Assembly (NCBI RefSeq): GCF_003334385.1
Contig: NZ_QOWN01000008.1
DNA from: Escherichia coli
GTDB taxonomy: Bacteria > Pseudomonadota > Gammaproteobacteria > Enterobacterales > Enterobacteriaceae
Strand: one strand, 5' to 3'
Length of the DNA: 64,000 bases
Below are positions 61,616 to 61,785 of the stretch, one piece after another. Numbering within the stretch: position 1 is the first letter of the stretch; the number at the start of each line of letters is the position of its first letter. The notes under the pieces were generated by a model. The model saw only the letters and a program-made list of their open reading frames with translations. It did no database searches and had not been told where the DNA came from. A program made the translations under genes and the position numbers.

Positions 61616-61690
61616 GTCCTCTTAGTTAAATGGATATAACGAGCCCCTCCTAAGGGCTAATTGCAGGTTCGATTCCTGCAGGGGACACCA
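61616..61690 (+). tRNA. argW: tRNA-Arg (anticodon CCU)
   Basis: 75-nt sequence GTCCTCTTAGTTAAATGGATA...CTCCTAAGGG...GGTTCGATTCC...ACCA with cloverleaf elements and encoded CCA; recognised as argW. Confidence 0.93.
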
Positions 61691-61785
61691 TCCTTGTGTT
61701 TATCCCTAAAACCACATAAAAACCGTAAATTAAATTCGAACTAGCAGGCCGAATAAGGCACACCAGGAACTCGTGGTTTTATTCA

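Follow-up and report, generated by a model that had tools for sequence, protein, structure and literature searches.

In Escherichia coli K-12 the tRNA gene argW is separated from the dsdCXA genes by the CPS-53/KplE1 prophage, as was stated in a first-pass annotation of the DNA described here. Approximately 10.2 kb encoding intS, yfdG/H/I, tail-fibre fragments, yfdK-yfdT and torI lies between argW and dsdC, dsdX and dsdA. In the 64-kb stretch of E. coli DNA analyzed here, which is referred to as the window, argW and dsdC are direct neighbors. The locus raises the question of whether the integration site at argW is an intact and empty attachment site, and whether it was inherited empty or vacated by an element that had once occupied it. 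The comparisons reported below indicate that the site is almost certainly an intact and unoccupied attB at the 3' end of argW in a phylogroup-A-like chromosome that is nearly K-12 in sequence, with no CPS-53/KplE1 in the 64 kb covered.

Results

The argW gene and its neighbors

The only tRNA gene identified with ARAGORN in the 64-kb window is a tRNA-Arg with the anticodon CCT (CCU), located at positions 61616-61690 on the plus strand and matching Rfam family RF00005 with a score of 63.4 bits. The gene has an encoded CCA end and is intact, with 75 of 75 nucleotides the same as those of K-12 argW. In a search of Rfam at a permissive E-value the tRNA was the sole significant match. A match to 'Plastid-ycf2' antisense to the tRNA (24.8 bits) and one to mir-556 were dismissed because the scores were far below the gathering scores. 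A scan of positions 61400-62000 for terminators and promoters returned none of either, against chance expectations of 0.7 and 1.2. The hexamer TATACT is present at positions 61599-61604, 11 nt 5' of the mature tRNA end, and is followed by the GC-rich CATGCCGC; the two look like the -10 box and discriminator of an argW promoter. The consensus promoter scan missed this hexamer as a consequence of the weak -35 element (TTACCC).

The upstream chromosomal flank is occupied by yfdC (60608..61540, plus strand), an ORF of 310 aa encoding a member of the formate/nitrite transporter family that is identical to YfdC of K-12 and carries this name in the annotation of BL21, E. coli C and K-12. Downstream, dsdC encodes the LysR-type activator of D-serine catabolism and is located on the minus strand at 61786..62721, within an ORF spanning 61786-62727; the protein of 311 aa differs from K-12 DsdC by the single replacement T301I. 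The 5' part of dsdX, encoding the D-serine transporter, was mapped from the annotation of BL21 and E. coli C to 62939..64000 on the plus strand, with the ATG at 62939, and the gene extends past the end of the window. The names yfdC, tRNA-Arg and dsdC are those of the RefSeq annotation of a BL21 stretch with 100% identity, and where RefSeq annotates the same DNA in BL21 and in E. coli C, dsdX and dsdA follow dsdC. The variant of the locus in which the sucrose genes cscRAKB replace dsdC and dsdX next to argW was considered and rejected, as dsdC is complete and dsdX begins normally. The intact dsdCXA genes represent the D-serine-positive configuration of this variable locus and not the csc/sucrose configuration.

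The distance between argW and the stop codon of dsdC, first given as approximately 95 bp, is exactly 95 bp (61691-61785), and the interval is non-coding.

Identification of the attB core

Comparison of the window with attL and attR of K-12, a check proposed in the first-pass annotation, defined the attB core. Read outward from the start of the tRNA gene, the bacterial arm of attL in K-12 MG1655 is the same as the window through position 61691, and in the opposite direction, from the stop codon of dsdC, the window agrees with the bacterial arm of attR back to position 61676. The two arms share one copy of CTGCAGGGGACACCAT in an overlap of 16 nt at positions 61676-61691 (plus strand), and the window diverges from K-12 only where K-12 goes into prophage DNA. 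The remaining non-coding spacer between the core and the dsdC stop, positions 61692..61785, is the bacterial attR arm and matches the K-12 DNA at every base. Since the arms meet in a single core, the window has the exact sequence of attB. By this comparison the locus would be precisely what is predicted either for the substrate prior to integration or for the product of recombination between attL and attR. Both flanks of the core are chromosomal, the left being the left arm of attL and the right being the right arm of attR, with no phage-derived arm on either side, and the single 16-nt core lies at the 3' end of an intact argW gene.

With respect to the cloverleaf, CTGCAGGGGACACCAT is comprised of the last 4 nt of the 3' strand of the T-stem, the 7-nt 3' strand of the acceptor stem, the discriminator A, the CCA and 1 nt downstream of the tRNA. 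The duplicated 16-nt core reported to flank the 10.2-kb KplE1 prophage is exactly CTGCAGGGGACACCAT (Panis et al. 2010, PMC2951348), and the att sequence shared by Sf6, HK620 and KplE1 in the Kapi1 study is the reverse complement of CTGCAGGGGACACCAT.

Searches for an integrase, a second att site and element remnants

The sequence CTGCAGGGGACACCAT was found once in the 64-kb window, and no second copy of the core was detected with up to 3 mismatches allowed, a threshold at which 0.36 chance matches are expected. The 12-mers of the tRNA region do not recur elsewhere in the window. A repeat search of positions 60500-62900 identified merely short imperfect two-copy families, 12-mers with one mismatch, inside the coding sequences of yfdC and dsdC. 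When the 64 kb were searched with CPS-53 DNA by blastn and with 13 CPS-53 proteins by tblastn, matches were at the chance level alone; the best had an E-value of 0.006 and involved short segments away from the site, the sole meaningful match being the core itself. The integrase of another element that occupies argW gave a best E-value of 0.56 against the window. No integrase, recombination directionality factor (RDF) or phage genes adjoin argW, its neighbors being yfdC and dsdC. The results bear out the initial statement that integrase, att duplication and phage genes are absent from the site.

The spacer itself could hide the debris of a decayed element, for instance part of an integrase gene, a scar or a second att site that has degenerated. 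This explanation is highly improbable, considering that the spacer follows the K-12 chromosomal arm beyond attR without a mismatch, that positions 61691-61785 contain stop codons in all six frames and have no similarity to CPS-53 at the DNA or protein level, and that the core is single at up to 3 mismatches. Folding of the spacer RNA gave z-scores of -0.06 and -1.07 for the two strands, no better than for shuffled sequences, and a structured RNA is thus not supported. A degraded prophage or genomic-island remnant at argW was likewise rejected as a candidate, neither a second att site nor an integrase pseudogene having been found.

Distribution of the junction and chromosomal background

Of 5426 complete E. 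coli genomes, 911 (approximately one in six) have yfdC, argW and dsdC joined without interruption, and in BL21, 214-4 and NCTC9080 this junction is 100% identical to that of the window. Collinearity at approximately 100% identity extends over the final 25 kb of the window in E. coli C, NCTC122, WG5 and others. E. coli C aligned with the window in a single alignment of 49,044 columns with 99.95% identity, which includes 13 SNPs in 49 kb and zero differences over positions 59948-64000. None of the complete RefSeq genomes matched the window perfectly. These results bear on the possibility that argW and dsdC were brought together by an artefact of assembly, either a false join, as raised at the outset, or collapse over the 16-nt repeat with loss of the prophage. 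Such an artefact is scarcely credible given the occurrence of the same junction in the 911 finished genomes and the collinearity with E. coli C over 49 kb; moreover, a repeat of 16 nt would be far too short to cause collapse of an assembly.

Relative to MG1655, the left flank of 3.8 kb is 99.84% identical with one indel in a gapped alignment and the right flank of 2.3 kb is 99.96% identical. The gapped alignment was used for the left flank as the ungapped comparison with K-12 (3584 of 3801 positions) was misleading. The non-K-12 background that had been proposed is thus supported, yet is very close to K-12. The comparisons support assignment of the chromosome to a close phylogroup-A-like relative of K-12, distinct from K-12 itself and lacking CPS-53/KplE1 at argW. 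Beyond strain typing, where it marks the chromosome as K-12-like (phylogroup A) but different from K-12, the locus is of little relevance.

Two features outside the locus, mentioned in the first-pass annotation in connection with the background, are both present. The fimbrial usher gene yfcU of the yfcOPQRSUV operon is an uninterrupted ORF of 881 aa (47662-50307, minus strand), and in several near-identical genomes an IS5, IS1 or IS3 element is inserted in yfcU. The gene yfcG (native start at approximately 15938, stop at 16574) has an 11-bp deletion at approximately 16009 relative to E. coli C, which bears AAGCGATAATC on its own plus strand at the deletion point. The deletion is approximately 72 nt into the gene and causes a frameshift, leaving an ORF of 201 aa that starts from an out-of-frame ATG at 15969. 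The lesion is rare; this stretch of yfcG was matched without a gap in just 2 of 5426 complete genomes (LR-33 and NCTC9064). The gene yfdF (58319-59377, plus strand) is also intact and encodes 352 aa with one substitution relative to K-12.

Other elements integrated at argW

Elements other than CPS-53 were identified at argW in other strains. In strain 99-3165 the insert is a 10.4-kb element that encodes a rolling-circle replication protein as well as a tyrosine recombinase, and the 23-nt repeat at its borders is the same as positions 61671-61693 of the window. Strain PM4 harbors a P4-like satellite encoding an integrase, a TOPRIM/DUF927 primase, Psu and Ogr/Delta, for which the junctions were read by eye; the flanking repeat is imperfect, approximately 20 nt in length, and reads TCGATTCCTGCAGGG(G)ACAC, corresponding to approximately 61669-61688. 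Together, the repeats of the 99-3165 and PM4 elements define a wider segment at 61669..61693 (plus strand) that contains the blocks of identity used by argW-integrating elements other than KplE1. At attL of PM4 (22614-22690) the tRNA gene, annotated as 72 nt, ends with GGGGACAC followed by TTT and has no encoded CCA, and in the partial copy at attR (33838-33865) one G of the GGGG run is lost, rendering the flanking repeats imperfect. K-12, 99-3165 and PM4 have different inserts at argW on backbones that are nearly identical across the same 25 kb.

A gene of the intS type is present in 2162 of the 5426 complete E. coli genomes, and phages that integrate at argW were numerous in a phage collection, a large set of them being Stx2a-converting. 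The records of Stx2a-converting phages at argW annotate a duplication of tRNA bases 1 to 63-69, and in the O145:H28 strain RM12581 the complete tRNA is on the dsdC side of the insert. This duplication and the layout in RM12581 indicate that the crossover segment and geometry differ from those of the 3'-terminal 16-mer of KplE1.

A 16-nt exact copy of the T-arm segment TTGCAGGTTCGATTCC of argW is located within CPS-53 (13692-13707 of the MG1655 locus), approximately 20 nt upstream of the torI ATG and approximately 295 nt before the attR core. In the window this segment spans 61661-61676, its last base being the first of the att core; the match lies within the 75-nt tRNA and has an E-value of 0.55 against the whole window. 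An attP that once shared a longer stretch with the tRNA may have left this copy behind, as may a tandem integration, or the match may be due to chance.

According to the literature the argW region is highly variable and cscRAKB is often present in place of dsdCX, and CFT073 contains a 17-kb island at argW. Archer et al. 2011 listed CPS-53 for K-12 and Argw*W for W as the occupants of argW, and no mobile element for B and Crooks. The sequence of the core, the status of argW as a hotspot and the absence of an insert in B, C and Crooks have all been published.

Discussion

Proposed function of the site

In the KplE1/HK620 system, the tyrosine integrase IntS acts together with IHF to recombine attP with attB at their identical cores, and excision is under the direction of the RDF TorI. 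By analogy, integrases of the IntS type would bind core-type sites at the copy described here and exchange strands between attP and attB. The core copy brought by the phage would supply the same 15 terminal bases of the tRNA, and argW would remain functional after integration. Given a core and two arms that do not differ from those of the K-12 site, the attB described here should be competent for integration. The strain is predicted to be a permissive recipient for phages of the KplE1, HK620, Sf6 and Kapi1 type, for P4-like satellites and for other elements that use argW. Stx2a phages are also predicted to integrate at argW in this strain by way of another part of the tRNA.

History of the empty site

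The description of the site as a virgin attB holds insofar as the attB sequence is exact and the site is empty; the word virgin overreaches, since excision restores attB exactly. A site never occupied and a site precisely vacated have the same sequence, owing to scarless excision by tyrosine recombinases and to the fact that KplE1, though defective, is still excisable in vivo; ΔKplE1 strains exist (PMC2951348). It is conceivable that the site was lately occupied by CPS-53 or another argW element and then cured by precise excision dependent on integrase and RDF. The excisability of KplE1 is consistent with this history, as are the presence of intS-type genes in 2162 of 5426 genomes and the quick turnover evident from the three different elements on nearly identical backbones. 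The scarless nature of the reaction renders the sequence of the site uninformative in this respect, and the closest complete genome, that of E. coli C, is empty at argW, as are those of B and Crooks. Recent curing is accordingly considered unlikely. If an active argW element had been excised in this way, curing would have been natural and the strain would offer a clean target to the several integrase families with crossovers in 61669-61693. Inheritance of an empty site is favored by the lack of an insert in the close relative E. coli C and in B and Crooks, and would be the simpler history for the locus.

Comparison with known systems

The primary survey of the argW-dsd locus is reportedly that of Moritz and Welch in 2006. 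The window shares the order yfdC, argW, 95 bp and dsdC with E. coli B/BL21, E. coli C and Crooks (ATCC 8739), and is 100% identical to BL21 over 61400-62000. The window is nevertheless from none of these strains; yfdF is split by IS1A in BL21 and intact in the window, and E. coli C is without the 11-bp yfcG deletion. The attL and attR sites of K-12 and the attB of ΔKplE1 strains have the same tRNA, the same core CTGCAGGGGACACCAT and identical chromosomal arms. In K-12 the core is present twice, on either side of the 10.2 kb that hold intS-torI, whereas the window has one copy and no prophage. The P22-like phages HK620, Sf6 and Kapi1 have the same att sequence as the core of the window. The 17-mer reported for Kapi1, AATGGTGTCCCCTGCAG, corresponds to the core in reverse complement with one base added, and at this 17th base the window has a C (61692) where the Kapi1 17-mer has a T. 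The PM4, 99-3165 and Stx2a elements target the same tRNA gene, but with integrases and crossover segments that differ from those of the KplE1 group.
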